A DNA stretch of 32,000 nucleotides, taken from an uncultured Syntrophaceae bacterium (GTDB lineage Bacteria > Desulfobacterota > Syntrophia > Syntrophales > UBA6109). The notes beneath the pieces were generated by a model. It did no database searches, was not told the DNA's origin, and saw only the letters and a list, made by a program, of their open reading frames with translations. This document shows positions 5,776-32,000 of this stretch, piece after piece. The stretch is taken from positions 1-32,000 of the forward strand of contig CAZDLM010000028.1 of assembly GCA_964506465.1 (NCBI GenBank), given 5' to 3'. Positions within the stretch are counted from its first letter, which is position 1. Each line of letters starts with the position of its first letter. The position numbers and the translations under genes are program-made.

Positions 5776-6993
5776 TTATTTTTCCAGGACGAGGCAGGCG
5801 TATGTTCCGCCGAAGGAGATCCCGCTCAGGAGAGCCCGGTGAACGGGTTTTCGTATGGAAGTCCCGGCAACGAACGGCGCCAGGCTCAGGGGTTTCTTCA
5901 GACCGACGACGGGCGGGACGATCCCGTCCCGGAGGGAAAGCGCCAGAGCGGCCGCCCGCACGCCGCCCGACGCAAAGACCTCTCCCGTCGCCCCCTTGAG
6001 CGAGGTGATGGAAGCCCCGGCGCACGCGCTCCCGAAGAGCCTTTCGTAAGCCGCCGCCTCCAGCCCGTCCAGGTCGCGTCCGCCGTTGGCCGCCGCCTGG
6101 ACAAGGTCGATCTCCGTCGCCTTCGCCCCCGCCATGCGCAGGGCGCGGTCCAGGGTCAGCAGAAGGCCGCGGGGATCAGCCGGCCATGCCGTGGGCGGCG
6201 CCGGCGAGGAGCCCAGGCCCCATCCCGATATCTCCGCATAGGGCGTCGCGCCGCGCCGGCGTGCGGAATCCATGGTCTCGAGGCAGACGATCCCGCAGCC
6301 CTCTCCCGCGACCGGACCGTTCCTGTTGAGGTCAAAGGGGCGCGCTCCCTCCACCCCGCCTCCCGAAGGGGAGAGGGCGCAGAAACGGGTCAGGGCCTCG
6401 TAGTAGAACGGCGACAGGATGTCTCCACCCCCGGCGAGGATCGCATCCGCCGTTCCGCGGCGGATCTCCATGGCACCGTAGACGATGGCCGTCTCCGCGG
6501 AGACGGCCTGGTGATTGACCGTCGTGTTCACGCCGCGGAATCCCATCTCGATGGAGGCGTGGCCGGCCGGGGCGTTCATCACGGTATTGGGAACGAAAAG
6601 AGGGCTGACCCTTTCGGGCCCTTCCGTGAAGAGCACCCGGGCGCTCAGGACCTTGTGTTCCGTATTTCCGAAGGCCGTCCCCATGACGATCCCGATCCGG
6701 TCGCGGTTGGCGTCATCGACGCGGATCCCCGCATCCTCCAGGGCCATGCGTACCGATGCCGTCGTCATGGCCGACAGGCGGTCCATCTTTCGCAGATTTT
6801 TCAGGGAAATGAAGTCCCGGGGCTGGAAGGCGCGGCATTCCGCCCCGAGGTGAGAGGGCAGCCCGCCGGTCGGAAAGCCCGCAATCTCCCGGATCCCCGT
6901 TTCGCCGCTCCAGAGGGCCTGCGCAAAGGCCTCCTTGCCGACCCCAATGGGCGTGACCATGCCGATCCCGGTGATGACGACGCGCCTATCCAT
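5776..6993 (-). CDS. Chain-length-factor-like ketosynthase homologue (KS fold, catalytic triad lost)
   Basis: 405 aa from ATG 6993 (MDRRVVITGIGMVTPIGVG...). KS fold throughout, but the nucleophile segment reads NHQAVSAE (no Cys) and both His segments are lost (AAANGGRD, LKGATGEV). The start overlaps the stop of the upstream KS by 8 nt. The track ORF 5776..7371 carries a spurious upstream extension. Confidence 0.85.
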   Translation of the reverse strand: MDRRVVITGIGMVTPIGVGKEAFAQALWSGETGIREIAGFPTGGLPSHLGAECRAFQPRDFISLKNLRKMDRLSAMTTASVRMALEDAGIRVDDANRDRIGIVMGTAFGNTEHKVLSARVLFTEGPERVSPLFVPNTVMNAPAGHASIEMGFRGVNTTVNHQAVSAETAIVYGAMEIRRGTADAILAGGGDILSPFYYEALTRFCALSPSGGGVEGARPFDLNRNGPVAGEGCGIVCLETMDSARRRGATPYAEISGWGLGSSPAPPTAWPADPRGLLLTLDRALRMAGAKATEIDLVQAAANGGRDLDGLEAAAYERLFGSACAGASITSLKGATGEVFASGGVRAAALALSLRDGIVPPVVGLKKPLSLAPFVAGTSIRKPVHRALLSGISFGGTYACLVLEK

Positions 6994-8245
6994 GCCGCCT
7001 TCCCTCTTCCCGGAAGCGGCCGAAGACGACCGTCGTATTGTTCCCGCCGAAGGCGAAGGAGTTGGAAAGAACGACTTCCGGCTGCGCCCGGCGGGCCCCC
7101 GCTGCGACGTAATCCAGGTCGCATTCCGGATCTGGCGTCTCGCAGTGGATCGTCGGCGGGATGAATTCTTCCGTGATCGCCAGGAGCGCGACGACCCCTT
7201 CGATCGCACCGGACGCCCCCAGCGTGTGGCCGTGCATCGACTTGGTCGAACTGACGGGGATCCGCCAGGCCCGCCGGCCGAAGACCTCCTTGATCGCCCG
7301 CGTCTCCATGAGATCGTTGAGCGGCGTCGCCGTCCCGTGTGCGTTGATGTAATCGACCGCCTCCGGCGCAAGACCCGCGTCGGCGAGGGCCGCCCGCATC
7401 GCCCGCGCCGCTCCGGAGGCGCCGACGTCCGGCGCCGTCATGTGATGCGAGTCGCAGGTGACGCCGTAGCCCAGGATCTCGCCCAGGATGTTCGCTCCCC
7501 TGTCGCGCGCGCTCTCCAGGGATTCGAGGATGAGGATCCCCGCCCCTTCTCCGAGCGTCAGTCCCGCGCGGTTCCCGGAAAAAGGGCGGCAAAAGCCGGG
7601 ATCGACGGCCTGCAGGGCGTTGAACGAGGAATAGGTCATGCGGCAGAGCGGCTCGGTTCCGCCGGCGATCATCGCCCGGGCGGCGCCGGCACGGATCAGA
7701 TCCCGCGCCAGGCCGATGGCCGTCGCCCCCGAGGAACAGGCGGTCATCAGGGTCGTCTTCGGTCCCCAAAGGCCGAATTTCGTCGCGAGATGATTGGCCG
7801 TCGAAGCGCAGCAGAGCGGGGCCAGCCGGGAAAACCTGACGGAGTGGGGGCCCCGCTGCAGGTAGTCTGAAAAGACGGTCTCCGCCTCCAGAAGGCCGCC
7901 GGCTCCCCCGCCGATGACGACGCCCATTTCCTCGCGAAGCCCTTCCGGAACGGGAGCAAGCCCCGCCTGGGCGAGGGCCTCCAGCGCGGCGGCAAGGCCG
8001 AGGCAATCGGAGCGAGACATCCGTTTGAGAGAAAATTCGGCGGGAATGGCGGCGCGGGGCCGGAAATCCTTCACCTGCGCCCCGTTGTGGGTGCGGAATG
8101 CCGCCGTATCGAAAAGGGTAATCGGCCCGATCCCGCATTCCCCGCGCAACAGGGCTGCGGCGAACCGGGAGACATCGGCGGCCAGTGCGTTGACGGTCCC
8201 CATCCCGGTGACCACCACGCGCTCTTGGGTTTCTTTTGTCTTCAT
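6986..8245 (-). CDS. Beta-ketoacyl-ACP synthase (KS, FabF/FabB-like, intact Cys-His-His)
   Basis: 419 aa with MTACSSGATAIG (Cys), NAHGTATPLND (His) and KSMHGHTLGASG (His). Confidence 0.9.
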   Translation of the reverse strand: MKTKETQERVVVTGMGTVNALAADVSRFAAALLRGECGIGPITLFDTAAFRTHNGAQVKDFRPRAAIPAEFSLKRMSRSDCLGLAAALEALAQAGLAPVPEGLREEMGVVIGGGAGGLLEAETVFSDYLQRGPHSVRFSRLAPLCCASTANHLATKFGLWGPKTTLMTACSSGATAIGLARDLIRAGAARAMIAGGTEPLCRMTYSSFNALQAVDPGFCRPFSGNRAGLTLGEGAGILILESLESARDRGANILGEILGYGVTCDSHHMTAPDVGASGAARAMRAALADAGLAPEAVDYINAHGTATPLNDLMETRAIKEVFGRRAWRIPVSSTKSMHGHTLGASGAIEGVVALLAITEEFIPPTIHCETPDPECDLDYVAAGARRAQPEVVLSNSFAFGGNNTTVVFGRFREEGRRHG

Positions 8246-8249
8246 AGGT

Positions 8250-9488
8250 TCAGGAGAAGCGACGGATCAGCAGGCTCGTGTTGACGCCGCCGAAGGCGAA
8301 ATTCTGGACGGCCGCGGTGTCGATGCGCTCCGCCACGATCCCCGGGGTGTGGCGGATCATGGCGCAGCGCTCGTCCGGCTCCTCGAGGTTCAGCGTCGGT
8401 GCGACGAAGCCCTCCCGCATCATATAAAGGATAAGAATCGTCTCGATGGCGCCGCAGGAGCCCATGGTGTGCCCCATGTATCCCTTGAATCCCGTCACCA
8501 GGGGATGGACGCCGTAGACGGCGTGGATCGCCTGGGCCTCGATGATGTCCCCCATCTTGGTCCCCGTCGCATGGGCGCTGATGAAATCGACCTGATCGGG
8601 GTTCAGGGACGCGTCCCGCAGCCCCAGGCGGAGGGTTTCGCCGATTCCCCGCATGTTCGGAAGGATCAGGTCGCCCCCGTTGTTGTTGCAGGCAAAGCCG
8701 ATGACCTCTCCCAGGATCTCGGCACCCCGGTGCCTCGCGAACTCGTATTCCTCCAGGAGCACCGCCCCCGCGCCCTCCCCCACGACGAGCCCGTCGCGCC
8801 TGCGGTCGAAGGGCCGCGGGGTGCACTGAGGACGGTCGTTGAAGGCCGTGGAGCAGGCCAGGAGGTTGTCGAAGACCGCCACGGTCGTCGTGTCGTACTC
8901 GTCGGCCCCGCCGCAGAGCATCGCATCCTGCATCCCGAACTTGACCATCTCGTAGCCGTAACCGATGGACTGGCTGCTGGTCGTGCATGCCGTGGAGGAG
9001 GAGATCACCCGCCCGGTGATGCCGAACATCTTGGTGATGTTGACGGCCGTCGTGTGGACCATCGACTTGAGGTAATCGACCGCGCCGATCGTGGAAAACT
9101 CCGTCCGGCTGCCGGTGAAAAAGGTCTTGTAGATCTCCCGCTGGACCGAGGGGCTGCCGTGCGTCGAGCCGAAGGCCACCCCCAGGCGGCCGGAGGTCAC
9201 GAATTCTGTGGTCAGGCCGGACTGCTCGAGAACTTCCTTCGCCACCTGACAGGCGTAATAGGCGACGGGCCCCATGGTCTTGCGGTAGACCCGTTTGAAA
9301 TCGAACTCGACCGGATAATCCACAGTCCCGAAGACCCGGGAGTGGATGAAGCGGGACAGGAGGTGATCCTCCTTCAGCGGTTTGACGCCGGAAACGCCGC
9401 GCTGAAGGCTCGCCACGATCTCGTCGCGGCCGTGGCCGATCGGCGTGATCGCCGAACAGGCCGTAATGACCACCCTTCGCCCCGTCAT
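8250..9488 (-). CDS. Beta-ketoacyl-ACP synthase (KS, intact Cys-His-His)
   Basis: 412 aa with SSSTACTTSSQSIG (Cys), SAHATGTKMGD (His) and YMGHTMGSCG (His). 4-nt gap to the next KS. Confidence 0.9.
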   Translation of the reverse strand: MTGRRVVITACSAITPIGHGRDEIVASLQRGVSGVKPLKEDHLLSRFIHSRVFGTVDYPVEFDFKRVYRKTMGPVAYYACQVAKEVLEQSGLTTEFVTSGRLGVAFGSTHGSPSVQREIYKTFFTGSRTEFSTIGAVDYLKSMVHTTAVNITKMFGITGRVISSSTACTTSSQSIGYGYEMVKFGMQDAMLCGGADEYDTTTVAVFDNLLACSTAFNDRPQCTPRPFDRRRDGLVVGEGAGAVLLEEYEFARHRGAEILGEVIGFACNNNGGDLILPNMRGIGETLRLGLRDASLNPDQVDFISAHATGTKMGDIIEAQAIHAVYGVHPLVTGFKGYMGHTMGSCGAIETILILYMMREGFVAPTLNLEEPDERCAMIRHTPGIVAERIDTAAVQNFAFGGVNTSLLIRRFS

Positions 9489-9518
9489 GGCCGGGCTCCG
9501 GTATCCGCGGATGCGGCT

Positions 9519-9788
9519 TCAGGAATTTTCATACAGACGCCTCTTGTCGGCCATGAGCACGACATAGTCGATCACCTGCCGGATCGTGCGGATCTCCATG
9601 GCCATCTGCTTTTCTTCATGCGTCAGCTCGCTCTTGAGGAGATGTTCGATTTCCAGGAGCAGCTCAATGGCGTCTACGCTGTCGAATTCGCCGGCTTCGC
9701 GCAAATCGTCATCGAGTCCGGGATTTTCCATCTCGAACTCCCGGTGGAAAATATTCAGAATCTCGAGAGTAATCTGTTCTTTTGTCAT
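9519..9788 (-). CDS. Acyl carrier protein (cluster ACP 3)
   Basis: 89 aa, acidic, with the phosphopantetheine-Ser motif in GEFDSVDAIELL. Confidence 0.85.
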   Translation of the reverse strand: MTKEQITLEILNIFHREFEMENPGLDDDLREAGEFDSVDAIELLLEIEHLLKSELTHEEKQMAMEIRTIRQVIDYVVLMADKRRLYENS

Positions 9789-9864: not shown

Positions 9865-11400
9865 TTACTTTCCCGGGCACTCGGCCGCCTCCGGAGGCGG
9901 CGCGTTCCCGCGGAATTCGTCCAGGTCGGCAAAGCGGTTCATTCCTTCGAGGCGCCGCAGATACTGCTGATAGCGTGCCTGCCAACCGGCCCTGCGGATC
10001 CGCCGGTCGACGAAAAACTTCATGACGGGTTGGATGACGTAGGTCCAGAAGGAGGTCCACAGGCGGCCCTGCTGCACGGCGAAGGCCGAGGGTTTCCACC
10101 ACCCCAGGACCGTTTGCCGGTAATGCCAGAAGGCATATGCCAACTGATCGGCCTGAAGCCGCCGGGTCTTCACATTGGCCCAGAAGCCGTTGTACCGCTC
10201 AAAGCGGTCGGGATTCGTCACCAGGCCCTCGGCGAGCAGATTTTCCCGAAGCCGGGTCTTGGGATAGGGGGTGAGGATCTGGCAATACGCGGCGTCGATC
10301 TCCAGTTCATTGAGGAATCGGTAGTTCTCCTGGATGGCGGTATCATCGTCGTCGGGCAGCCCGAAGATGAGGCCCCCGATCACCATGATGCCGTGCCGGT
10401 GGCAGCTCAGGACGGCCTGCCGCGCCGCCTGGACCAGATCGCCCTTCTCCATGGCCGCGAGGTTCCGGCTGGAAGCGCTTTCAATCCCCAGAAACACCCC
10501 TCGGAATCCCGCCGCGGCCATCTTGGCCACCATCGCCTCATTGCGGGCCATGGAGATGCAGTCTGCCTGGACGATCAGCCGCAGGTTCCGGTATTTCCGG
10601 GCGATGATGGCGTCGCAGACGGCCGTGACCCACTGGGGGTTCAGCACCATGTTGTCATCGGTGATGAAGATGAGACGCGTCTTCCGGTTGAAGTAGATGT
10701 CGTCCAGGTCGGCGAGAATCCGTTCGATGGGATACGTCCGGTAGGAGCGCCCATACATGTGGTTGATGCTGCAGAAGTTGCAGCTTCGCGTGCAGCCCCG
10801 GGAGGTTTCCATGACCTCGATCCGGGAGTACATGAAGTGGTATCCGCGCGTCAGGCGCCGGCGGTCGCGCACCGGGAGCTTTAGCCGGGACAAATCGCAG
10901 AGTTCCCCCGTTTCGTTGTGGATCCATTCGTTCCCGCGCCTGTAGGAGAGCGACGGAACGGCCTCCAGGCTGTCGGTCCCCGCCAGGGCGTTGACCAGCC
11001 TCCGGAACGTCTCCTCCCCTTCGCCGCGGATGATGAAGTCCATCTCCTGCGCATCCGGGGATGTGGCGATCTCGCGGCTCATCAGGGTGGCATGATAGCC
11101 CCCGACGGCGATCTTCACTCCGGGCAGGAGACGCTTGATGAGCCGCATCACGGCCAGACACGTCGGGAACTGCCAGGTCATGGCCGACAGGCCGACCAGA
11201 TCGGGGCGGATCTTCTTGAGGGTCTTCGTCAGATAGGCGACGACGCCGCGGCGCTTGCGGACCAGATCGATCAGATGGACCTCATGCCCCTCATCGATGT
11301 TGCCGGCGACGCAGGCGATGCCGTGGTTGGGCATGTGGAGCGCCGTCTCATGGATCACGATCGGAATCACATCCGGCATCGAGATCAGGACCACCTTCAT
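9865..11400 (-). CDS. B12-binding-domain radical SAM enzyme (class B type)
   Basis: 511 aa. N-terminal Rossmann-like domain (MKVVLISMPDV..., DLVGLSAMT, KIAVGGYHAT) and CxxxCxxC in SRGCTRSCNFCS, followed by a long C-terminal extension. Confidence 0.85.
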   Translation of the reverse strand: MKVVLISMPDVIPIVIHETALHMPNHGIACVAGNIDEGHEVHLIDLVRKRRGVVAYLTKTLKKIRPDLVGLSAMTWQFPTCLAVMRLIKRLLPGVKIAVGGYHATLMSREIATSPDAQEMDFIIRGEGEETFRRLVNALAGTDSLEAVPSLSYRRGNEWIHNETGELCDLSRLKLPVRDRRRLTRGYHFMYSRIEVMETSRGCTRSCNFCSINHMYGRSYRTYPIERILADLDDIYFNRKTRLIFITDDNMVLNPQWVTAVCDAIIARKYRNLRLIVQADCISMARNEAMVAKMAAAGFRGVFLGIESASSRNLAAMEKGDLVQAARQAVLSCHRHGIMVIGGLIFGLPDDDDTAIQENYRFLNELEIDAAYCQILTPYPKTRLRENLLAEGLVTNPDRFERYNGFWANVKTRRLQADQLAYAFWHYRQTVLGWWKPSAFAVQQGRLWTSFWTYVIQPVMKFFVDRRIRRAGWQARYQQYLRRLEGMNRFADLDEFRGNAPPPEAAECPGK

Positions 11401-12269
11401 AGCGCCGCCTTCCTTTCCATGAGGGCGCGCGCCTCGTCCACCAGCGCGGGCAGAGAGAAGGTTTCACTTCCGTAATCCGGCTCCAGGCTCCCGGCCAGTT
11501 CGACGCTGATGACCGCCTCGTCATGGGCATTGAACAGGAATCGGTCCGGCGGAAAGAGTCTCTGCGTGTTGCGGATGAGGACCACCCGGAGGGGCGATGC
11601 CTGGCAGAGACGGGCGATCTTGAACGCGCCCTTGTCGAACGGGCCGATCCTGCCGTTGCGGGACCGGGTCCCCTCGGGAAAGATGAAAAGATTTCCGCCT
11701 GCGGCAAGGTAGTCCTGCATGGCCTTGATCTGGTCGATCATGCTGGCCGAAAACAGTCCCTCGGCCAGCGAAGGAATGTAACCGGAGCGCCGCAGTATCC
11801 AGCCGAAAACGGGAAGACGGAAATAGTCGTTCTTGACGATCGTCTTCTGCTTTTCAAACAGGGAGACGAAGAGGATGGGATCCAGAAACGACAGGTGGTT
11901 GGCGATGATCACCGAAGAACGCAGGGCCCCGACCTCGTCCGAGACATGCCATTTCACCCGGGGAACCAGGACCCGCAGAAGGGCGAAGAACGACCGGTGA
12001 AGGCGGCAGTTCCATCGTTGAAAGGCCGTCTCTCCCCCGGATGAAAAAAAATGCGTGTACAGATAGAAGGGCGAAAAGAACAGAAGGAATCCCAGAATGT
12101 AGTAGGCCCAGAGGAGCGCCGTCACGATGAAGTCATGGACCCATGCCGCAACAGCACGGGGTCCGGTTGGCGTGCCTTCCGCGCTCCCGGCAGTCCCTTC
12201 CGGGTTGTCTGGCAAAGATCGTCCGCCGTCCACCGGGGAGGTTCGGCCGGTCCGTTCCGGTTGGGTCAT
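11397..12269 (-). CDS. 1-acyl-sn-glycerol-3-phosphate acyltransferase-like (PlsC/LPLAT family), membrane anchored
   Basis: 290 aa from ATG 12269 (MTQPERTG...). Hydrophobic N-terminal segments, H(X)4D in IIANHLSFLDP, and the FPEGTRS motif. TGATG junction with the upstream gene and ATGA with the downstream gene. Confidence 0.85.
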   Translation of the reverse strand: MTQPERTGRTSPVDGGRSLPDNPEGTAGSAEGTPTGPRAVAAWVHDFIVTALLWAYYILGFLLFFSPFYLYTHFFSSGGETAFQRWNCRLHRSFFALLRVLVPRVKWHVSDEVGALRSSVIIANHLSFLDPILFVSLFEKQKTIVKNDYFRLPVFGWILRRSGYIPSLAEGLFSASMIDQIKAMQDYLAAGGNLFIFPEGTRSRNGRIGPFDKGAFKIARLCQASPLRVVLIRNTQRLFPPDRFLFNAHDEAVISVELAGSLEPDYGSETFSLPALVDEARALMERKAAL

Positions 12270-13780
12270 CACGGCCGTCCCCCGCTCGATCCCGGCTTTT
12301 CCCGTCCCTTCGCGAGCTCTTCGTAAATCGGCGCGAAACGGTCTGCCCCGACCACCTGCCGGACGCCATGAAAAGAACCCATCAGGGTTCCGAAGACGCC
12401 CGGCGAAAGGGCGTTCTGGCCCGCAAGCCAGAGACCGGACGGCCCCAGGCGGTGGAGCGTTGCCGCAGCAGGCAACTGGCGGACCGACCGCAGGATCCCG
12501 TAAGGGGAGCCTTCCGGAGTATCCACCCAGTCCCGCAGCGTCAGGGGGCTGTAGGCATCGATCACCTTCGCGTCCGCCAGCGGCCCGAAGACCTCCTCGG
12601 CGTCCTGCAGGAGTTTGCCGGCGAGGGAAGCCTTTTCCTCTTGGTAATCCGCGCCCCGCCGGCCGGTGGTCGTCCGCTCCCACCGGCGCCACTCTTCATA
12701 GGGGCTCCTCGTAATGGCCACCAAGAGGTTTCTCCCCTCCCGGCCTCGCAGCATTTGATAGAAGACGCCCCCGCGGATCGAGCCATCCCGGTTTGTGCGC
12801 AGCCGGAAGATGTTGTGCGGAAGGGCCGGGTGGACGGCGGCGTCCACCGACGCATTCACAGCGAAGAGGCTCTCCGTCTCGCACAGCTCGGCGACGCGCC
12901 GGACCCGGCGCGGAAGGACCAGCCCTTCCGGCAGCATCGCCATCGCCTTCTTGGGATGGATGGCGGCAACCACCCGCGGGGTTCTGCACACCGTTCCCGA
13001 CGCCAGCCGGACCCCCTCGACCGCGCCCCCCGGGGCGAGGATCGCCGTCGCCGGATCGCCGCACAGGAGGGTCCCGCCCAGGGATTCCAGCCTCGCGACA
13101 AAGGCTCCCGCCAAGTCCGCACCGGATCCCTTGAGCCGCCAGGAAGAGAGCAGATAGGATGTCAGGGCCAGGTGATGATAGAGGACGGGACACTGGTCCT
13201 CCGGCATCCCCATCCATCGGGCCGAAACGCCCAGGACGCTCCTGAGCCCCGCCGAACAGTCCATTCCGGCGAGATAATCCCCCAGCGGCGCGAAGAACGC
13301 CGGATCGATGGCCAGAGGGGCCGGCGAAAGAAAAGCGAAGTCCTTCTGGAGACGGGAAAACATGCGGAGGTTTTCGACGATCGCGGCGATGGGGCGCCCG
13401 TCGCCGGGAAACGCCTTCTCCAGCGAGGCGCCGAAGGCATCGAGTCCCACGGGCAGGTCGAATAGGAAGTCATCGAAGAGGTAGCGGTCGATGGCTCCTC
13501 CGCTCCCCATCTCCTCCGCCGCCATCTGGTCCGCAACGCCCAGATAATCGCACATCCTCCGGAGGGGTTCTCCCTCTCCGAAGGAGCCGAAATAGTGGAC
13601 GCCGACGGGGCAGTCCAGGCCGTCGCGCCGGTAGCCGCGCATCAGGCCGCCCGGCAGCGGATTCCGCTCGACGATGACGACCCGGTAATTCAGCAGGGAC
13701 AGGAGGATCCCCACCGACAGCCCGCCGATCCCCGAACCGATGATCGCTGCGTCAAAAGTCCGTTTGTCTTCCATGGTCAT
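12269..13780 (-). CDS. FAD-dependent oxidoreductase, phytoene desaturase (CrtI)-like fold
   Basis: 503 aa with the dinucleotide fold FDAAIIGSGIGGLSVGILLS...VERNPLPGG. Length and layout are typical of the CrtI/amine-oxidase family. The start may be ATG 13774 instead. Confidence 0.8.
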   Translation of the reverse strand: MTMEDKRTFDAAIIGSGIGGLSVGILLSLLNYRVVIVERNPLPGGLMRGYRRDGLDCPVGVHYFGSFGEGEPLRRMCDYLGVADQMAAEEMGSGGAIDRYLFDDFLFDLPVGLDAFGASLEKAFPGDGRPIAAIVENLRMFSRLQKDFAFLSPAPLAIDPAFFAPLGDYLAGMDCSAGLRSVLGVSARWMGMPEDQCPVLYHHLALTSYLLSSWRLKGSGADLAGAFVARLESLGGTLLCGDPATAILAPGGAVEGVRLASGTVCRTPRVVAAIHPKKAMAMLPEGLVLPRRVRRVAELCETESLFAVNASVDAAVHPALPHNIFRLRTNRDGSIRGGVFYQMLRGREGRNLLVAITRSPYEEWRRWERTTTGRRGADYQEEKASLAGKLLQDAEEVFGPLADAKVIDAYSPLTLRDWVDTPEGSPYGILRSVRQLPAAATLHRLGPSGLWLAGQNALSPGVFGTLMGSFHGVRQVVGADRFAPIYEELAKGREKPGSSGGRP

Positions 13781-18972: not shown

Positions 18973-18976
18973 CCGT

Positions 18977-24005: not shown

Positions 24006-24007
24006 CG

Positions 24008-25561: not shown

Positions 25562-25972
25562 CTAAAAACACTGCTCTTTGTCAAGCGATTTGTGCCGCGG
25601 ACTGACGACCGGTTCGGCGGTAAAAGCCCCCGTACAGGCCGGTTCGCCGGCTATTGCGACGCTGAAGAGATAGGTCCATCCGTCCCGCCCCTCCCGCCTG
25701 GATATCTTCAGCGTCAGTTCCTCATCCGGCCTGACCGGAAGGCGAAAACGGACCCTCCCGAGACCGGTAATCCTCATCGACCTTCCCTCCCCGCGTTCCG
25801 CCGCAAGGATCGCCTCTTCCACCAGCGCCAGGATGGCGATTCCCGGAAGCAGCGGGGCGCCGGGGAAATGGCCGTCGTACCACGCCGAATCCGCTGAAAC
25901 GCTTGCCGAAGCCGCTATGCGGTCCGCCGTACCCGAACGGCGCGACAACGCCTGATGGAACGTCTTCTTCAT
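25562..25972 (-). CDS. FabZ-like (3R)-hydroxyacyl-ACP dehydratase (single hotdog)
   Basis: 136 aa. YDGHFPGAPLLPGIAILALVEE matches the FabZ His/Glu active-site segment (HFPxxPxxPG). Confidence 0.8.
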   Translation of the reverse strand: MKKTFHQALSRRSGTADRIAASASVSADSAWYDGHFPGAPLLPGIAILALVEEAILAAERGEGRSMRITGLGRVRFRLPVRPDEELTLKISRREGRDGWTYLFSVAIAGEPACTGAFTAEPVVSPRHKSLDKEQCF

Positions 25973-26832
25973 TTGTCCTCCGGACCTTTCCTGATTTCGG
26001 GAACAGCGCCGGACCGCGGAAGGGTTGCCGGTTCCATCACCGGCCTGCCGGTCAACTGCGACAGCGGCACGACCTCATACCCCTTCGACTTCAGCCCCAG
26101 GACGATCTGCTCCATCTCCTCCATCCAGTCTGCGATCCCGCCGTCGCCGGACGGCGTGACGTCGTGGAGAAGGACGACGGCCCCGGGGCGGACCCTCGAA
26201 AGGATGCCTTTGGCCAAGCCCCGGATGCGGCGGTTCCCGAAATCGCCGGCCCGGCAGCTGAAGGTGATGCAGTCCATGTCCAGCGTCCTGAGCACCCCCC
26301 GCAGTCTCGGATTGGTGATGCCCACGGGCGGCCGGAAAGCGCGGGGCAGGATGCCGAAACCGGACAGCAGTTCCTGGGCGCGGGTGATCTCATCGCAGAG
26401 TCTCGCGCGGGAACGCAGCATCAACAGAGGGTCATGATGGTAGGAGTGATTGCCGATGGCGTGCCCCCGCGACAGGATCTCCCGGATCAACGCCGGATGC
26501 CGTTTCGCCTCGACCCCCACCACAAAGAAAGTCGCCGGCAGCCGATGCCGATCCAGGAGGTCGAGCAGACCGGGCGTGACTTCCGGATCGGGGCCGTCGT
26601 CGAACGTCAGGGACACCGCCCGGCGGTCTCCCGCTCCGCGGCTGATCACCGGCAGGAAGAAACCCGCCCGGGGCAGAAAGGGGGCGGCCAGGCAGGAGAG
26701 AACAAACAGGCCGAGGGGGACGGCGGCCATTTCCGCACGCACGAACATCAGGCCCCCGGAGAGGAGCATCGATGCAGCGCCCGCGATATGGGCCGGCGAC
26801 GGATTCCTTCCAGCGGTCGACGCCTTGTTCAT
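25969..26832 (-). CDS. NodB-homology (polysaccharide deacetylase family) protein, membrane anchored
   Basis: 287 aa from ATG 26832 (ATGA overlap with the upstream stop; alternative ATG 26850). Two N-terminal hydrophobic helices. NodB motifs LTFDDGPD and GNHSYHH. Confidence 0.8.
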   Translation of the reverse strand: MNKASTAGRNPSPAHIAGAASMLLSGGLMFVRAEMAAVPLGLFVLSCLAAPFLPRAGFFLPVISRGAGDRRAVSLTFDDGPDPEVTPGLLDLLDRHRLPATFFVVGVEAKRHPALIREILSRGHAIGNHSYHHDPLLMLRSRARLCDEITRAQELLSGFGILPRAFRPPVGITNPRLRGVLRTLDMDCITFSCRAGDFGNRRIRGLAKGILSRVRPGAVVLLHDVTPSGDGGIADWMEEMEQIVLGLKSKGYEVVPLSQLTGRPVMEPATLPRSGAVPEIRKGPEDK

Positions 26833-28178
26833 CTCAGCAACAGCTCCCACAGCGGACCGGAATGACCGCGGGCGTACATCCGGGCCACGGCGCGTTCCGT
26901 CTGAGCGCTGCCGTCCCCATAAATCCAGTTCAGGCGGCCCCGGGCTTGCCGCTTCACGCGCTCCCTGATCTCATCCTTCGCAATTCCCTTGGAGCGATAA
27001 AAGATCGGGGTCAGAAGATCCTGATCCGGTGCGATCTGTCCCTCCTCCAGCGAGAGTTGATAAAGCGGGGTCTGGGGGAAGATCCGTACGCCACAGAAGA
27101 GGAAGAACACCGCCTTTCCCAGCGCCTCCATGCCGGCCAGCGTCTCTTCCAGGGTCTGTGCGTCCTCTCCGGGCCCGCCCAGCAGAAAGTAGTGGGCGAT
27201 GTGGATCCCTGCCCCCCGGGCGCTCGCGTGGGCGGCGAAGACGTCCCCCGCTTGAAATGGTTTCTGGTAGCGCCTCAACTGCGCGTTGCACAGAGATTCC
27301 GTTCCGAATTCGGCGTGCGTCATTCCGGCGTCGGCCAGGGCGCTGTAATAACCCTCGGCCGGACGCCGCGGGGCCAGAAAAGCCCCCCAGGGAATGCCGA
27401 GCCGTTCGCGCCGGAAGGCCTCGGCGACGGCAAGGCTGTGGTCCTCGTCGGCGTTGAAGACCGAGTCCGTGATGAAAAGAAACCGGGCGCCCAGTTCCTC
27501 CAGTTCCCGCGCCTGCCGGGCGACCTCTTCCGGGGGGAAGAACCGGAATTTGCGCCCCTCGATCAGGGGGAAGGAGCAATAAAAACAGCGGAACGGACAA
27601 CCCCGCTTCGTCTGAAGGTTCATGATCCCTCCGCGATCGAGGTAGAAGCGAAGCCCGGCTTCGCCGGGCGCCGTCCGCCGCGCCACTTTTCCGGTCCAGG
27701 GTACGGGGCACCCGACGGGTCCGCCGCGCGTTACGATCCCGGGCAGGACGGCGGGGTCCGTGCGTTCTTCGAGGGCGGCGAGCAGCAGCGACATGGCCTC
27801 CCCCTCCCCGACCACGCCGAAATCGGCATCCAGCCGGGACATGAACTCGCGGGGAAAGATGGAAAAGCCGCTGCCGCCGAGAACGATGGGGGCCTGCGTG
27901 CGCGCCCTGATGAACCGTGCAAGCGCCTCATAACCCGGAATGAAGCTCTTCGTATCGAGGGTATCTTCGTTGTCGATATTCCGGATGGAGATTCCGATGA
28001 CGTCCGGACGATCGACTCTCAGGGAGTCTTCCAGACGATCCTGAGCCCCGGCAACGTTCATGTCCAGGATTCGCACCTCATGACGGGGCGTCAGGGCCTG
28101 CATGACATAATCGAGCCCGAGCGGATAAACCGGGTGCGGGGTCGTGACCGTGTTGGCCGAAATGAGCAGCACCTTCAT
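26829..28178 (-). CDS. B12-binding-domain radical SAM enzyme (lipid-cluster type)
   Basis: 449 aa. N-terminal domain MKVLLISANTVTTPHPVYPLGLDYV, VIGISIRN, VLGGSGFS. CxxxCxxC in TKRGCPFRCFYCS. Confidence 0.85.
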   Translation of the reverse strand: MKVLLISANTVTTPHPVYPLGLDYVMQALTPRHEVRILDMNVAGAQDRLEDSLRVDRPDVIGISIRNIDNEDTLDTKSFIPGYEALARFIRARTQAPIVLGGSGFSIFPREFMSRLDADFGVVGEGEAMSLLLAALEERTDPAVLPGIVTRGGPVGCPVPWTGKVARRTAPGEAGLRFYLDRGGIMNLQTKRGCPFRCFYCSFPLIEGRKFRFFPPEEVARQARELEELGARFLFITDSVFNADEDHSLAVAEAFRRERLGIPWGAFLAPRRPAEGYYSALADAGMTHAEFGTESLCNAQLRRYQKPFQAGDVFAAHASARGAGIHIAHYFLLGGPGEDAQTLEETLAGMEALGKAVFFLFCGVRIFPQTPLYQLSLEEGQIAPDQDLLTPIFYRSKGIAKDEIRERVKRQARGRLNWIYGDGSAQTERAVARMYARGHSGPLWELLLR

Positions 28179-28208: not shown

Positions 28209-28571
28209 TCACCGTCCGTCCATCTTTTCGACGGTCCTTCGCGCGGCCCAACGGAGGAAGAACAAGACATAGGTCGATCCGGCAAGCCAGGAACCGACCA
28301 TGAAAACAATGTGGGAAAGGCCGTAGGTCAAGGGACCCCCGACGGCGACAACGAGCGGCTCATTCAGGGAATAGGCCATGACGGCCAGAAGCCCCACCGC
28401 CGGCCAGCCGATGAGGTAGCTCAAACCAACGAGTCCCAGCCCCACCCAGACCCGGGGTTGCGGTCTCCCGCGCAGCGAAGAGAGATCCCCCTTCTCCTCC
28501 ATGGCCTCGCGCACAAAACGCATCCGGACCAGCCGGCGGACGATCGCTGCCCTGATCGGACCCCCTGACAT
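28209..28571 (-). CDS. Small integral membrane protein (hypothetical), first gene of the cluster
   Basis: 120 aa from ATG 28571, preceded by GGAGGGAG. About three hydrophobic segments (VWVGLGLVGLSYLIGWPAVGLLAVMAY, PLVVAVGGPLTYGLSHIVFMVGSWLAG, TYVLFFLRW). No recognisable motif. Confidence 0.55.
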   Translation of the reverse strand: MSGGPIRAAIVRRLVRMRFVREAMEEKGDLSSLRGRPQPRVWVGLGLVGLSYLIGWPAVGLLAVMAYSLNEPLVVAVGGPLTYGLSHIVFMVGSWLAGSTYVLFFLRWAARRTVEKMDGR

Positions 28572-28927
28572 CGCCTTACTCCCTCCGCACCCCTTGCCGG
28601 AACGCTCCCCGCCGCTTCCGGATCCGCGCCATCACCGCCGGGAACGCCATCCCCGGCCCGACCGGCTGAAGAGGTTTTATATCCCAAAAGCATCTTCAGC
28701 GCCATCTCTTTGGGTTTCCCGGCTCCCTGTCTCGTTCCCCGGCCGGGAGGAGCAGGAATCCGCAAGAGAATATTGATTTTCATTTATTTTCAGGATATGC
28801 AGAAGCCCAATGCGCGCAGGCAGGTATATGCAACTCTTCACCTCTTTCTTCAACTGCCCGCTCTTCGCTTCATTTCCACAAAAGACGCATCAAGAAATTG
28901 TCACGATAGAAAAAGGAGGATCCGAAC
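28572..28927. promoter_or_regulatory. Divergent intergenic/promoter region between the 25-gene operon and the lipoprotein-ligase operon
   Basis: 356-bp non-coding gap between divergent starts (28571 minus, 28928 plus). AT-rich core around 28765-28800 (gaatattgattttcatttattttcaggatatgc). Candidate plus-strand TTGATT(28773)-17 nt-TATGCA. Strong SD AAAGGAGGA before 28928. No promoter could be assigned with confidence. Confidence 0.4.
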
Positions 28928-29533
28928 ATGAATATGAAAAGATGCGCGTCTCTGGCGGCAGGTTTTGCGCTGTGCCTCTTTCTGACTTCCTGCAGTTCGA
29001 CAACCGATGCCGTAAAAGTCCCTCTGAACCATTACTCTCCAAATTTGAAGTCGGACCTGAGCAAATACAAGGGAAAACCGATCTATCTGATGAACTTCGA
29101 CAATCAGGCCAAAAATACCACCAACTTTTACTATTTGAGCCTTGACCGGAAATTTGCCTATCACGGAGACTCCCTCATCCACAACTATTTCTGGTATTCC
29201 TTCGACAAGGCCCTGAAGAATCTCGGCATGGTCGTCTCCAACCCGAATCGGCCGGATGCCGTTGCGCCGGGCGTGTGGCTGACCCTGAAATCGATCACCG
29301 ACGCCCGCTACGTGGTGGAGGTAAAGATCCAGACGCGATGGGAGCCGTTCTTCACGAAGACCTACGAGGTCGCGGGAGATGCCTCCGTCGGTGACGGAAA
29401 GACGCCGGCCGAACTGGAAAAGAGGGCCTACCTCATGACCAACCGGCTCATCGAGGGCATCTTGACCGACGTGGAATTTCAGAACGCCTTTTTCAAGGCC
29501 GTCAAGGAGATGGCATCGACGAAAGGCACCTGA
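28928..29533 (+). CDS. Lipoprotein (hypothetical)
   Basis: 201 aa with signal peptide plus lipobox MNMKRCASLAAGFALCLFLTSC. Strong SD. No recognisable catalytic motif. Confidence 0.75.
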   Translation: MNMKRCASLAAGFALCLFLTSCSSTTDAVKVPLNHYSPNLKSDLSKYKGKPIYLMNFDNQAKNTTNFYYLSLDRKFAYHGDSLIHNYFWYSFDKALKNLGMVVSNPNRPDAVAPGVWLTLKSITDARYVVEVKIQTRWEPFFTKTYEVAGDASVGDGKTPAELEKRAYLMTNRLIEGILTDVEFQNAFFKAVKEMASTKGT

Positions 29534-29544: not shown

Positions 29545-30987
29545 ATGACCGGGACCCCTGACATGCCGGCAGCGGAAATGACGATGTACGAAACGATTGC
29601 GGCCCTTCTGGAGAAAGAGGCCTCCCCTTTCGTCCCTTCCGGGCCGACCATAGGGGAAATCGCCGCGTTGGCCGCCGGATTCCGGGATTTCTTCGCCCGT
29701 TCGAGAACGCCCGCCGATGAGCCGGTTTGCCTGTGCGTCGAGAACCGGTCGCACCTGCTGGCGGCCGTGCTCGCCTCTCTGGCGGGCGCCCCGCCTTTCA
29801 TCCTCCCGCATGCCTGTCACCCGCAGGTTCTCAAAGAGGCGCAGGGAGAGAGGCCCTTCCGGATGATCCTCGCCGACGTCGCCGTGGAGGCGCCGAAGGG
29901 GGCGGCCGTCATCGATATCGCGGCATGCCGTCCGGGCCATGGACCCCTGAAGCTTACCCGCCCTCCGAAGCAGCCCCTCGTCTTTCTCTTCACGGGGGGC
30001 TCCACCGGAAAACCACGGCTCTGGTCCAAGACCCCCGAAAATCTGTTCGGCGAGGCCTTCCACCTGGCCGGATCCCTCGGCATCGGTCCGGCCGACCTCA
30101 TCCTCTCCACCGTCGGCCCCCAGCATATCTACGGTCTGCTCGGCTCCGTTCTTCTCCCCTTCATCGCATCGGCGCAGGTCATCGGGCGAACCTGCACGTT
30201 TCCCCGGGAGATCCTCGGCGCACTCCGCAGAGACAGTGCCACGATCCTGGTCAGCGTCCCCGCCCATTACCGGGCACTCAGGGCCACGGATCTCACCCGC
30301 CATGCCCTGAGGATCGCACTCTCCTCCGCAGCCCCGCTGGATCCCGAAGACGCCGCCGCCTTCCTGGACAAGACGGGACTGGCGATCCGGGAAATCTACG
30401 GGTCGACGGAAACCGGAGGGATGGGAATGCGGACGTCCGGCGAAAATCACGGATCCTGGAAGCCCTTCACCTGTCTGGACTGGAAGATCCTCGCGGACCG
30501 GCTCTGCGTGCGTTCGCCTTTCGTCTCCCCGGATCTCCCGCGCGACGAGGCCGGTTTTTTCACGACGGCGGATCGCGCCGCCGCGGACGATGGAAACCGC
30601 TTCCGCGTCCTGGGGCGTGCGGATCGCATCGTCAAGATTGCCGGCAAGCGGGTCGATCTGGAGGAGATCCGGGAGAAGATCCGGCGGATCCCCGGCGTGA
30701 CGGACGCCCACGTAACGACGGTTCCCCTGAAGGGGGCCAGGCAGATGGAAATCGTGGCCCTTGTGGCCAGCGATCAGCCCGCCCGTCAGGTCAGGGCCGC
30801 CGTCCGGTCCCTGGACGATCCTTACGGCCGTCCGCGCCGGATTCGCATCGTCAGGGCCGTTCCCGTCCTTCCGAACGGCAAGGTCGACCGGCATCGCATC
30901 GAGAAGCTCTTCGCCGCACCCCATCGCCCGAAGGCGGCCGAGGGCCTCACGGACCGCGTCCCTCCTTCCCCTCCCCCGTATCCCTGA
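29545..30987 (+). CDS. Adenylate-forming enzyme (AMP-dependent synthetase/ligase, short APE-cluster-like form)
   Basis: 480 aa with FLFTGGSTGKPRLW (P-loop-type AMP motif), EIYGSTETGG, and TADRAA...GRADRIVKIAGKRVDLEEI. Confidence 0.85.
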   Translation: MTGTPDMPAAEMTMYETIAALLEKEASPFVPSGPTIGEIAALAAGFRDFFARSRTPADEPVCLCVENRSHLLAAVLASLAGAPPFILPHACHPQVLKEAQGERPFRMILADVAVEAPKGAAVIDIAACRPGHGPLKLTRPPKQPLVFLFTGGSTGKPRLWSKTPENLFGEAFHLAGSLGIGPADLILSTVGPQHIYGLLGSVLLPFIASAQVIGRTCTFPREILGALRRDSATILVSVPAHYRALRATDLTRHALRIALSSAAPLDPEDAAAFLDKTGLAIREIYGSTETGGMGMRTSGENHGSWKPFTCLDWKILADRLCVRSPFVSPDLPRDEAGFFTTADRAAADDGNRFRVLGRADRIVKIAGKRVDLEEIREKIRRIPGVTDAHVTTVPLKGARQMEIVALVASDQPARQVRAAVRSLDDPYGRPRRIRIVRAVPVLPNGKVDRHRIEKLFAAPHRPKAAEGLTDRVPPSPPPYP

Positions 30988-31864
30988 GAAAAGTCTCGAA
31001 GTGATACCACTCGTCGGGATGCGCGCGGGCCGTTTCGGCGAGCAGATCCGCATACGTCTGGGCCGCCGTCTCGACGGCCCTGCGGCGTTCGGCGCGCGAG
31101 GCGACGGCGACGAAGACGGGCGGCTTTGCGACGACGTGGTAACGCCCTCGTCCCGTGCGATGGCCGAAGAAGATCAGGAGCGGCGCCCCGGAGATGCTCG
31201 CCAGGATATAGGGAATTTCCGGGAGCCGGGCCTCGCCGCCGGCGAACCGAACGGTGACGGACCGCTGGTCCTGAGCCCATAACCGGTCCCCCGTGAGGGA
31301 AACTAGCCCGCCGCTCCGCAGGAAATCCAGGCCTTCCAGGATGTCGATCGCCGACGCCGCTTCCTCCGGAGCCGAGACGACGCGGATCCCGTTTGCCTTC
31401 ACGGTCCGTTTCTGACGCCCCTCGATCTGCTCCCGGCGCTTCTCCCCGAGATAGAGCAGCAGCCTGATCCGCGGGTCCCCCTCGCCCATGCGCATGAGGA
31501 GCTGTGCGGCGATTTCCCAGCCGCCCACGTGCGACATGAGGATGATTCCGCCCCGGCCGCCGTGGGCGGCGGCAACGATATGTTCCCATCCCTCGCAGGT
31601 GAACGGAAGCCCGCCGTCTTCCGCCAGGCGGAACCGGTCCAGGAAGACGTGGACGAAGGAGTGATATTGCCGCCAGGTGCGCAACAGAGCGTGCAGCCGC
31701 GGCCTTTCCGGGAAGAGACGGCGGTAGAACCGGACGCTGACGGCGACGCGGCGGGGGCAAAGAAGGAAGTAGCCCGTCGCCACGTGCCAGGCGATCAGCA
31801 GGAAGATCCAGTCTCCGAACGTCCTCGCCAGGGCCATGAGACAGCGGTAGAAGAGATCCTTCAC
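30947..31864 (-). CDS. LpxL/HtrB-type (lipid A biosynthesis-like) acyltransferase family protein
   Basis: 305 aa from GTG 31864 (GTGA overlap with the upstream stop). N-terminal TM segment. H(X)4E in ILMSHVGGWEIA, as in the LpxL HFMSLE segment (from memory). Overall layout of this family. Confidence 0.7.
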   Translation of the reverse strand: MKDLFYRCLMALARTFGDWIFLLIAWHVATGYFLLCPRRVAVSVRFYRRLFPERPRLHALLRTWRQYHSFVHVFLDRFRLAEDGGLPFTCEGWEHIVAAAHGGRGGIILMSHVGGWEIAAQLLMRMGEGDPRIRLLLYLGEKRREQIEGRQKRTVKANGIRVVSAPEEAASAIDILEGLDFLRSGGLVSLTGDRLWAQDQRSVTVRFAGGEARLPEIPYILASISGAPLLIFFGHRTGRGRYHVVAKPPVFVAVASRAERRRAVETAAQTYADLLAETARAHPDEWYHFETFLRDTGEGKEGRGP

Positions 31865-32000
31865 GGCTGAGCCTCTCCCGGTGCGGACCGTTCGGCGACG
31901 AACCAGGTCTCTTCGCTCGCCGGCGCCGACGGCTCCACGGTTTCGATCCGAAAACCCGCGGCGCGGATTGTCGCCTCGATCGCTTCGCGGCTCCGGTAAC
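31861..32000 (-). CDS. C-terminal fragment of an upstream gene, methyltransferase-like (gene starts beyond the right edge)
   Basis: Hand translation: YRSREAIEATIRAAGFRIETVEPSAPASEETWFVAERSAPGEAQP*. The ...EAI...AGF.I... ending resembles the C-termini of class I SAM methyltransferases, but only 46 codons are visible. Confidence 0.4.
   Translation of the reverse strand, partial: YRSREAIEATIRAAGFRIETVEPSAPASEETWFVAERSAPGEAQP

Follow-up and report, generated by a model that had tools for sequence, protein, structure and literature searches.

An aryl-polyene-like gene cluster with a conserved radical SAM block from an uncultured Syntrophales bacterium

A stretch of 32,000 nucleotides from an uncultured Syntrophaceae bacterium (NCBI GenBank assembly GCA_964506465.1, contig CAZDLM010000028.1, positions 1 to 32,000 of the forward strand; hereafter the window) carries a long gene cluster in which enzymes of the type II fatty acid synthase (FAS) and polyketide synthase (PKS) kinds stand beside five radical S-adenosylmethionine (SAM) enzymes (rSAMs). 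The locus adds a new member to a family of orphan clusters that has been known in silico since 2009 and now bears a name in NCBIfam. Judged from its sequence, the family is best described as an assembly and export system of the aryl polyene (APE) type to which a radical tailoring block has been added. On balance, we favour the reading that the locus encodes an APE-like type II PKS/FAS pathway that depends on carrier proteins, together with a conserved, oxygen-independent tailoring block, and that the product would most likely be a radical-remodelled, polyunsaturated acyl lipid of the cell envelope. Any particular chemistry of this pathway is put forward with much less confidence. The host is an uncultured strict anaerobe of the Syntrophales and not an anammox planctomycete.

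The gene set is not a chance juxtaposition. As far as gene content tells, the window holds both modules of the family, a core and a distal module, in intact form. The core members are g25, g24, g23, g21, the rSAM pair g20/g19, the ketosynthase (KS) pair g18/g17, g15 and g14, while the APE-like members comprise R2, g08, g04, g02:g01, g03, g10, g22, g16, g06, R3 and a methyltransferase fragment. Beyond these, g07 recurs throughout the cluster family, g13 occurs in a subset of it, and g09, g05 and g12 are lineage-variable. The features are listed below; names in Ape refer to the APE cluster of E. coli CFT073.

g01, 5776..6993, minus strand: KS resembling a chain-length factor (CLF), without the catalytic triad; Pfam KS N- and C-terminal domains
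g02, 6986..8245, minus strand: intact KS, partner of g01; FabF-like, 434 bits
g03, 8250..9488, minus strand: intact KS, ApeR-like; best NCBIfam match PRK09116, 395 bits
g04, 9519..9788, minus strand: acyl carrier protein (ACP); PP-binding domain, DSV serine motif
g05, 9865..11400, minus strand: B12-binding rSAM, BchE/HpnR-like; Pfam B12-binding and Radical_SAM, CX3CX2C at residue 203
g06, 11397..12269, minus strand: PlsC-family acyltransferase, ApeD-like; PF01553, HX4D motif
g07, 12269..13780, minus strand: flavoenzyme of the CrtI/amine-oxidase fold; NAD_binding_8 and Amino_oxidase domains
g08, 13838..14098, minus strand: ACP, ApeE-like; PRK09184 70.7 bits, cut-off 70
g09, 14167..15309, minus strand: flavoenzyme of the acyl-CoA dehydrogenase (ACAD) fold; all three ACAD domains
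g10, 15339..15770, minus strand: single-hotdog dehydratase, ApeP-like; PF22817 33.1 bits, cut-off 27
g12, 16036..16878, minus strand: MipA/OmpV outer-membrane protein; PF06629 141 bits, signal-peptide-like N-terminus
g13, 16918..18345, minus strand: B12-binding rSAM, HpnJ-like; Pfam, CX3CX2C at residue 210
g14, 18397..18972, minus strand: putative divergent membrane acyltransferase of the PlsY family; PF02660 121 bits, five transmembrane-like segments
g15, 18977..19840, minus strand: PKS-type double-hotdog dehydratase; HxxxGxxxxP and DxxxH motifs
g16, 19807..20298, minus strand: 4HBT/YbgC-type thioesterase, ApeK-like; TIGR00051 81 bits, cut-off 68.7
g17, 20295..21566, minus strand: intact KS of the core pair; Pfam, triad intact
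g18, 21722..22975, minus strand: intact KS of the core pair; Pfam, triad intact
g19, 23007..24005, minus strand: rSAM with a C-terminal Cys cluster; CX3CX2C at residue 35
g20, 24008..25168, minus strand: rSAM, paralogue of g19; CX3CX2C at residue 74
g21, 25224..25505, minus strand: ACP directly upstream of the rSAM pair; PP-binding, DSM serine motif
g22, 25562..25972, minus strand: single-hotdog dehydratase, ApeI/FabZ-like; PF22818 33.3 bits, cut-off 28.5
g23, 25969..26832, minus strand: NodB-type deacetylase/esterase with an N-terminal membrane segment; PF01522 106 bits, TFDD and HSxxH
g24, 26829..28178, minus strand: B12-binding rSAM; PF02310 and PF04055, TIGR04072 390.9 bits
g25, 28209..28571, minus strand: small membrane protein, first gene of the putative operon; two transmembrane-like segments
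Divergent intergenic region, 28572..28927: 356 bp
R1, 28928..29533, plus strand: lipoprotein; lipobox LTSC
R2, 29545..30987, plus strand: adenylate-forming enzyme, ApeH-like; AMP-binding domain
R3, 30947..31864, minus strand: LpxL-family acyltransferase, homologue of the N-terminal half of ApeJ; PF03279, HX4E motif
Methyltransferase C-terminal fragment, 31894..31998, minus strand: 35 residues, running off the window; tblastn match to related locus L156

In a genome scan with a profile of g24, 552 species-level genomes proved to encode a relative and 80 loci were retrieved, and a synteny set of 160 related loci (numbered with L) was searched by tblastn with all window proteins. The best g24 loci among the genomes belong to metagenome-assembled genomes (MAGs) of Syntrophaceae and Deltaproteobacteria, with g24 identities of 65-72%, and the homologues of g13 and g24 bear names such as Syntrophales, Smithella, Syntrophus and Smithellaceae; the placement of the host relies on these names of the best matches. 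Exact-sequence look-ups of g24 and of the 100% identical cluster representative of g13 gave no recorded entry. The core begins with g25, an ACP, sometimes a KS and a CLF, g24, NodB, an ApeI-like dehydratase and an ACP, and continues with g20, g19, g18, g17, the thioesterase, the PKS-type dehydratase and PlsY; it is spread over Syntrophales, Smithella, Desulfobacterales, Leptospirales and Spirochaetota MAGs. Counted among loci with enough flank, the rSAM genes are present in about 90% (g20 in 52 of 58 loci, g19 in 51 of 55), ACP g21 in 57 of 63, the core KS genes g18 and g17 in 47 of 53 and 41 of 48, the thioesterase g16 and the PKS dehydratase g15 each in 38 of 45, NodB g23 in 47 of 71 and PlsY g14 in 29 of 43. 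A homologue of g25, which has no Pfam or NCBIfam match, occurs in 55 of 80 related loci, and in 39 of 63 it is at most 3 kb away on the upstream side of g24.

The distal module was delineated by a metagenome scan with g07, whose 285 relatives always lie within the FAS/radical SAM cluster type. It consists of an ApeP-like dehydratase, optionally ACAD, an ACP, the CrtI-like enzyme, g04, g03, PlsC, g02 and g01, and it is found in three arrangements: joined on behind the core, which is the layout of the window (L091, L094), on its own next to an AMP-ligase gene in divergent orientation (L117-L127, L141-L146), or with the CrtI gene beside g24 and g04-g03 after the core (L107-L111, L129-L156). This linkage of core and distal genes in at least three gene orders argues for their functional coupling. 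Absence of the rSAM, CrtI-like and PlsY genes, from which the initial annotation would have concluded that the combination is fortuitous, is not the rule among the orthologous clusters, and the CrtI-like gene recurs in all three arrangements.

Among the chain-building enzymes, four of the five KSs (g02, g03, g17 and g18) retain the Cys-His-His triad. In g01, Ala, Ala and Glu replace Cys, His and His, a loss that is kept in six orthologues and is the exception in a run whose other enzymes have intact catalytic motifs. The genes for g01 and g02 overlap by 8 nt, and g17 and g18 share 41% identity. The third KS of the distal module, g03, is 73-89% identical in related loci, where the ACP g04 is always paired with it; each of the three ACPs (g04, g08, g21) carries the serine motif. 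With 23.3 bits, g15 falls just short of the Pfam cut-off for PS-DH (23.7), a borderline score, and g14, a member of its Pfam family, reaches 93.8 bits against TIGR00023, the PlsY equivalog with a cut-off of 137, so that by sequence it is a divergent PlsY paralogue. Only weak matches to CrtD/CrtI families of NCBIfam were obtained for g07. More restricted in their occurrence are g09, with orthologues (80-93%) only in the close relatives L002, L091, L093, L094 and L096, and the MipA gene g12, seen only in the window and in L002.

On the right flank, R2 resembles ligases of the 4-coumarate/4-hydroxybenzoate type in NCBIfam, and its 107 bits against TIGR02372 (cut-off 335) are a score from which starter specificity is not readable. 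A homologue of R2 is divergent from the distal module in about ten loci, and orthologues of R3 (44-52%) head the clusters L114, L133, L142, L145 and L156. In L111, a homologue of R1 (30-31%; 14304-14897) separates the two rSAM genes, an indication that R1 is part of the system rather than a bystander.

The radical SAM enzymes

All five rSAMs (g05, g13, g19, g20, g24) bear the CX3CX2C motif. The assignment to the "ladderane-like" FAS/radical SAM class, already proposed in the initial annotation, is carried by g24, which passes TIGR04072 with 390.9 bits against a curated equivalog cut-off of 360 over its full length (2-448 of 443 model positions). This NCBIfam family is entitled "lipid biosynthesis B12-binding/radical SAM protein" and named rSAM_ladder_B12. 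The protein combines an N-terminal B12-binding domain with a radical SAM core, in which CPFRCFYC is found at residue 194.

With the same model, the other two B12-binding enzymes, g05 and g13, each give no more than about 101 bits. Orthologues of g05 (57-62%) were found only in L083 and L145. In related clusters, g13 comes after the PlsY or PKS dehydratase gene, and the copies in sister clusters share no more than 66-69% identity with that of the window. The identity is higher for orthologues that stand outside FAS clusters (77-81%), namely in Syntrophus gentianae and one 4-Mb genome (77-78% in both) and in L117, L120 and L123. Stand-alone orthologues adjoin HD-domain and nitroreductase/ferredoxin genes (L001 10001-11461; L003 10001-11461), and those in L117, L120 and L123 are encoded on the opposite strand next to a distal module that occurs alone. 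Either the cluster of the window acquired g13 recently, or g13 has a second, cluster-independent role. In one cluster variant (L107, L108, L110, L111) the CrtI-like gene is directly followed by NodB with no g24 of the TIGR04072 type between them, and a g13-like B12-rSAM is retained downstream of the PKS dehydratase gene, so the B12-rSAMs may be able to replace one another in part.

The remaining two enzymes, g19 and g20, are paralogues (27% identity, E 2e-31) that both carry a C-terminal CCx7Cx2C motif, which, from its sequence, could hold an auxiliary cluster. The most conserved gene of the family is g19: across loci, other phyla included, its identity is 65-95%, while that of its neighbours falls to 31-50%, a difference that indicates strong selection on g19 in the cluster context. 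Only 504 clusters of 1.84 billion representatives match it at E 0.001 or better, and the g19/g20 family is accordingly small and distinctive. An AlphaFold (AF2) model of g19 was obtained from a 32-sequence alignment with a predicted local distance difference test score (pLDDT) of 88.6, and the nearest folds in the PDB are the twitch/SPASM-type enzymes SkfB, anSMEcpe and CteB, followed by viperins, all at a template-modelling (TM) score of about 0.5. SkfB, anSMEcpe and CteB share with g19 the partial TIM-barrel rSAM core and a Cys-rich C-terminal extension. They differ from it in sequence (12-21% identity) and in substrate, since they act on peptides or proteins, whereas the context of g19 suggests an acyl or other substrate bound to a carrier protein.

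This context is an ACP gene that precedes the rSAM pair g20/g19 in every locus. Distant relatives of g19/g20 (25-38% identity) likewise adjoin PP-binding genes (L166 8124-13627; L168 8824-11255). One of these distant loci contains PaaA/PaaC-like, AMP-ligase, SnoaL and AurF genes, and its 90%-identity cluster includes proteins of Acidobacteriota MAGs; the other is of a polysaccharide type with glycosyltransferases and sulfotransferases. From the ACP adjacency in both the cluster and the distant loci, it would follow that the g19/g20 family acts on carrier-protein-bound substrates.

Relation to aryl polyene and ladderane candidate clusters

The APE cluster of E. coli CFT073 (ApeA-ApeR; NC_004431 1143727-1158748) served as the reference for a comparison by tblastn. 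Eleven window proteins have a specific gene of that cluster as their best match, among ApeR, ApeO, ApeE, ApeP, ApeI, ApeK, ApeH, ApeD and ApeJ. KS g03 matches ApeR (40% over 414 aa, E 5e-92), and g02 matches ApeR at 37% and ApeO at 35%. Further pairs are g08 and ApeE (45%), g10 and ApeP (28%, E 3e-8), g22 and ApeI (30%, E 1e-7), g16 and ApeK (34%), R2 and ApeH (27%, E 5e-25), and g06 and ApeD (31%, E 3e-15); R3 aligns with ApeJ in its N-terminal half (25% over 299 aa). Considered trait by trait, the KS and CLF of APE clusters (ApeO:ApeC) have their counterparts in the intact g02 and the triad-less g01; the ApeI/ApeP dehydratase pair in g22 and g10, both of which pass their Pfam cut-offs; and the adenylase, two ACPs, 4HBT thioesterase and ApeD/ApeJ acyltransferases in R2, g08/g04, g16, g06 and R3. 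No tblastn match was found between g01, which is full length, and ApeC, which has 240 aa.

A dedicated ketoreductase (ApeQ) is absent from the window, where no FabG-type ketoreductase or other short-chain dehydrogenase/reductase was found (best tblastn E 0.58). The same holds in the 32 kb for the MMPL exporter, the LolA-like and the DUF3261 proteins (ApeL, ApeM, ApeN) and, by tblastn, for LolA and GT2 genes. Related loci do contain such genes: a FabG-type ketoreductase 45% identical to ApeQ is present in L123 and L093, and open reading frames (ORFs) in the gaps of related loci encode a LolA-like protein, a DUF3261-like lipoprotein, an MMPL-methyltransferase fusion and a GT2 protein corresponding to the C-terminal half of ApeJ. 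The ApeJ of CFT073 (L165 7713-9389) is a fusion of LpxL-like and GT2 parts, which are separate genes in the cluster family of the window, and the MMPL exporter of L156 (933-4774) is fused to a C-terminal methyltransferase that is a separate gene (ApeB) in E. coli. At the right edge of the window, the fragment at 31894-31998 is 54% identical over 35 aa to the C-terminus of this L156 fusion (E 1e-5), so the cluster probably extends past the window.

The window thus shares with the CFT073 cluster the KS:CLF logic, the lack of an enoyl reductase (Pfam domain scans assigned no gene of the run to an enoyl-reductase family) and the logic of envelope export, to which related loci add homologues of ApeQ, ApeL, ApeM and of the GT2 part of ApeJ as well as a gene resembling ApeN. 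Conversely, CFT073 has no radical SAM, B12-rSAM, CrtI-like, ACAD, NodB or PlsY gene, no second KS pair and no PKS-type double-hotdog dehydratase, all of which the window has; moreover, the window comes from a strict anaerobe, unlike the APE cluster of E. coli. The contrast with APE clusters drawn in the initial annotation (no radical SAM, CrtI, ACAD or PlsY) therefore holds for CFT073, and its reading of the locus as an APE hybrid gains support from the direct comparison. Its use of the PlsC- and LpxL-type acyltransferases as evidence of a glycerolipid route is overstated: g06 and R3 are homologous to ApeD and to the N-terminal half of ApeJ and are therefore not independent evidence of a new route of this kind. 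The product proposed in that annotation, a methylated, cross-linked or cyclised chain on glycerol-3-phosphate, is hypothetical. In the open-access literature, nothing was found that links aryl polyenes to these clusters or to Syntrophales, and no paper was found on TIGR04072 or "lipid biosynthesis B12-binding".

In Kuenenia, FAS genes clustered with those for radical SAM and phytoene-desaturase-like proteins were described by Rattray et al. (2009, PMC2649909), who noted similar clusters in Pelobacter carbinolicus, Geobacter and Desulfotalea psychrophila. With these Deltaproteobacteria already in that study, the precedent is not confined to anammox bacteria, as had been supposed at first, nor is the class rare or newly seen, given the 552 genomes with a g24 relative and a family named by NCBI. 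The Kuenenia cluster kuste3335-3352 contains a glycosyltransferase, a phytoene desaturase, SAM methylases, FabZ, an ACP, FabG and two adjacent rSAMs, as well as a phenylacetyl-CoA ligase, FabFs including a non-canonical one, a further ACP, and deacetylase-like and lipoprotein-like proteins (PMC4790861, PMC2649909). Matched by annotation and composition rather than by alignment, this inventory parallels the window class for class and so adds to the evidence of TIGR04072 for class membership. The traits described by Rattray et al. recur in the window by annotation, namely the rSAM pair (kuste3342/3343 in Kuenenia, adjacent like g20/g19), the phytoene-desaturase homologue, the CoA ligase and the non-canonical FabF. 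Relative to kuste3335-3352, the window adds PlsY, PlsC, MipA, ACAD and two further B12-rSAMs, and its 32 kb lack FabG, a glycosyltransferase and a complete methyltransferase, of which it has the C-terminal fragment only.

The genes now regarded as specific to anammox bacteria lie in another cluster, KustE3603-3608 (Cluster I). Its parts (amxACP, amxFabZ, amxFabF2:amxFabFmut, PDH and a B12-rSAM) are of kinds that also occur in the window, and its CLF-like KS Kuste3606, like Kuste2805, shares with g01 a Glu at the second catalytic His. The order differs, as the CLF gene lies downstream of the KS gene in the window and upstream in Cluster I. Solved anammox proteins were considered as the closest structures to g22 and g18 and rejected, since ordinary FabZ and FabF score better: g22 reaches E 1e-9 with ordinary FabZ and 6e-5 with a PDB entry that we take, from entry name and date, to be an anammox homologue, and g18 reaches E 1e-72 with ordinary FabF and 1e-42 with an entry attributed in the same presumptive way. 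One paper that names both ladderanes and Syntrophobacter has hydrazine synthase as its subject (PMC12758564).

Proposed pathway and competing explanations

We infer all steps of the pathway from gene content, intact motifs and conservation. R2 would activate a carboxylic-acid starter and load it onto an ACP, and g02:g01 and g03 would extend this starter with malonyl units. A ketoreductase from outside the window, together with the ApeI/ApeP-like dehydratases, could then give a conjugated polyenoyl-ACP, whose double bonds would remain because the cluster has no enoyl reductase. The second KS set, g18/g17, and the PKS-type dehydratase g15 may work on ACP g21. On the ACP-bound chain, the twitch/SPASM-like rSAMs g20/g19 would abstract hydrogen, with a new C-C bond or some other rearrangement as the outcome, the cobalamin rSAMs may methylate or rearrange unactivated carbons, and the CrtI-like g07, in this lineage together with the ACAD g09, could adjust the double-bond pattern. 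The chain would be released by g16 and transferred by g14, g06 and R3 to a glycerol-phosphate or lysolipid anchor, the head group of which might be edited by the NodB protein g23. Finally, an MMPL/LolA system as in the relatives would export the product to the outer membrane, the presumed site of MipA and R1.

A more specific proposal is possible rather than probable. It holds that the core of 12-13 genes builds a carbocyclic, cross-linked or multiply C-methylated chain on its ACP, that this chain defines a new class of envelope lipid in hundreds of strictly anaerobic Desulfobacterota and spirochaetes, and that the same rSAM pair performs the early radical steps that anammox bacteria elaborate into ladderanes. 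If this were true, the g19/g20 family would be the first among radical SAM enzymes with a demonstrated remodelling of acyl-ACP chains.

Several points weigh against the favoured reading of a radical-remodelled envelope lipid. The cluster family is an orphan with no member of known product, and Kuenenia homologues expressed heterologously in E. coli gave no new lipid; the Kuenenia rSAM pair was not detected as protein in that expression (PMC4790861). The ketoreductase and export genes lie outside the 32 kb, so the pathway leans on genes inferred beyond the right edge or elsewhere. As g14 falls under the PlsY equivalog cut-off, acylation of glycerol-3-phosphate is not assured; the stand-alone orthologues of g13 mean that at least one rSAM may serve an unrelated role; and with a TM score of only about 0.5 to any solved enzyme, the fold of g19 does not allow the radical reaction to be named. 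In addition, we infer a real, tightly packed operon solely from the spacing of the genes.

The near-complete set of APE homologues across the window and its relatives, the ApeI-like and ApeP-like Pfam matches above their cut-offs and the similarity of R2 to 4-coumarate/4-hydroxybenzoate-type ligases would all be explained by an ordinary APE pigment cluster, in which the role of the rSAMs, the CrtI-like enzyme and the extra KSs is limited to providing or altering the aryl starter in the absence of oxygen, and which yields a conventional APE lipid. This is unlikely, since the rSAM, CrtI, PlsY, NodB, second KS pair and PKS-type dehydratase genes that CFT073 lacks are the most conserved part of the locus, and the full-length g01 finds no match in the short ApeC. 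An improbable alternative is also that two or three independent systems (the core rSAM/KS module, a g13-MipA pair and the APE-like module) merely lie next to each other. The modules do occur apart, with the distal one alone beside a divergent AMP-ligase (L117-L127, L141-L146), g13 has its stand-alone orthologues, MipA, g05 and ACAD are lineage-restricted, and the run contains gaps of 265 and 155 nt. However, the modules are linked in at least three gene orders across lineages, and the Kuenenia cluster unites the same set (PMC4790861). Furthermore, the genes for the ApeI-like dehydratase and the ApeK-like thioesterase are inside the core, and an ApeE-like ACP heads the core in most relatives (in the window, g08 is in the distal module), so that the core is not cleanly separable from the APE machinery.

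A ladderane pathway, that is, concatenated cyclobutanes made as proposed for anammox bacteria, is very unlikely and nearly excluded. The family name "rSAM_ladder_B12" of TIGR04072, the parallel with kuste3335-3352 and the Glu of g01, as in Kuste3606 and Kuste2805, point towards it. Against this, the window stems from a MAG of the Syntrophales type with about 62% GC and not from a Brocadiia planctomycete, the family is found in hundreds of non-anammox genomes, the anammox-specific genes are placed in KustE3603-3608, and g22 and g18 are no closer to the presumptive anammox structures than to ordinary FabZ and FabF. Desulfotalea psychrophila, which carries a syntenic cluster, contains no ladderanes (PMC2649909). 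The same organism makes C31:8 and C31:9 hydrocarbons (PMC2649909), which is in favour of an oxygen-independent route to polyunsaturated fatty acids (PUFAs) or hydrocarbons, the kind of route that Rattray et al. suggested for the Kuenenia and Desulfotalea clusters, with the CrtI-like enzyme and the rSAMs as desaturases. The window fits such a route in having three dehydratases, a CrtI-like enzyme and an ACAD but no enoyl reductase. We nevertheless regard it as improbable, because it leaves unexplained the B12-rSAMs, NodB and the LpxL/GT2/MMPL/LolA export set shared with APE clusters, and neither the window nor the loci examined showed an Ole-type gene. The C31:9 hydrocarbons of other bacteria derive from Pfa and Ole enzymes.

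What the present analysis adds to earlier descriptions of the family is the recognition of an APE-type machine joined to an extremely conserved radical SAM block associated with a carrier protein. With g24 relatives in so many genomes, the family is widespread in anaerobes; antiSMASH-type "ladderane" clusters have been reported in Desulfobacterota, and clusters of this type are expressed in anoxic waters (PMC9902471). Outside anammox bacteria, such "ladderane" annotations are better read as "APE-like cluster with radical SAM block". Ladderane biosynthesis is still called unresolved in a 2026 review (PMC13459092), and the unusual enzymes common to the window and to the cluster long suspected in this biosynthesis bear on that question. 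ACP g21, KSs g18/g17 and rSAMs g20/g19 form a minimal set for reconstitution in vitro. The locus itself is one further member of the family, comes from an uncultured genome, offers no new access for experiments and is cut by the window edge.

Gene packing and flanking regions

The minus-strand genes follow one another from 28571 to 5776 with no break in the series, as established from the phase of GC at third codon positions (GC3), ORF calls and domain searches. With refined starts, the run comprises 24 genes, and 10 of its 23 junctions overlap or are no more than 4 nt wide; the only larger gaps are those of 265 nt (15771-16035) and 155 nt (21567-21721). Raw ORF lists are noisy at the GC content of the window (53-69%), and in the relative L002, whose g13 orthologue is 90% identical, genes are called with starts that match the refined ones. 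Long N-terminal ORF extensions of g01, g06, g08, g15, g16 and g17 were rejected: the domain matches begin later, the GC3 phase shifts and the L002 calls give shorter proteins. In the initial annotation, the run had been given as 25 consecutive minus-strand genes with ten overlapping or nearly abutting junctions, flanked on the right by a lipoprotein, an adenylating enzyme, an LpxL-type acyltransferase and a methyltransferase-like fragment. The unbroken run, the ten junctions and the right flank are as described there, and every domain assignment was reproduced with Pfam and NCBIfam; only the count is corrected to 24.

An ORF of 144 aa at 5311-5745 on the minus strand, 30 nt downstream of g01 and in coding GC3 phase, may be the last gene of the operon and the 25th of the earlier count. 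Its only matches are very weak (Lsa33 adhesin, apolipophorin-like), and it overlaps a mechanically called ORF (4808-5644) in a different frame. A 25th gene inside the gap 15771-16035 was rejected, as just one arginine-rich ORF of 26 codons is present there. This 265-nt gap, between the MipA and ApeP-like dehydratase genes, has no Rfam match and no convincing ORF, and could be an internal promoter or the seam joining the two modules.

A consensus scan for promoters and terminators over 5000-24900 gave counts not above the shuffled expectation. The Rfam scan of the whole window returned no match and hence no cobalamin or SAM riboswitch. The divergent region 28572-28927, 356 bp without an ORF or an Rfam match, is, by its position, likely to be the promoter region of both operons. 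To the left of the run, the minus strand encodes a tungsten-type aldehyde:ferredoxin oxidoreductase (1158-2990), a GntR/FCD regulator (3455-4165) and a YHS-domain "(seleno)protein" (4808-5644; NF041384, 159 bits, where the match covers the C-terminal 113 residues of the ORF only). These three left-flank genes appear unrelated to the cluster.

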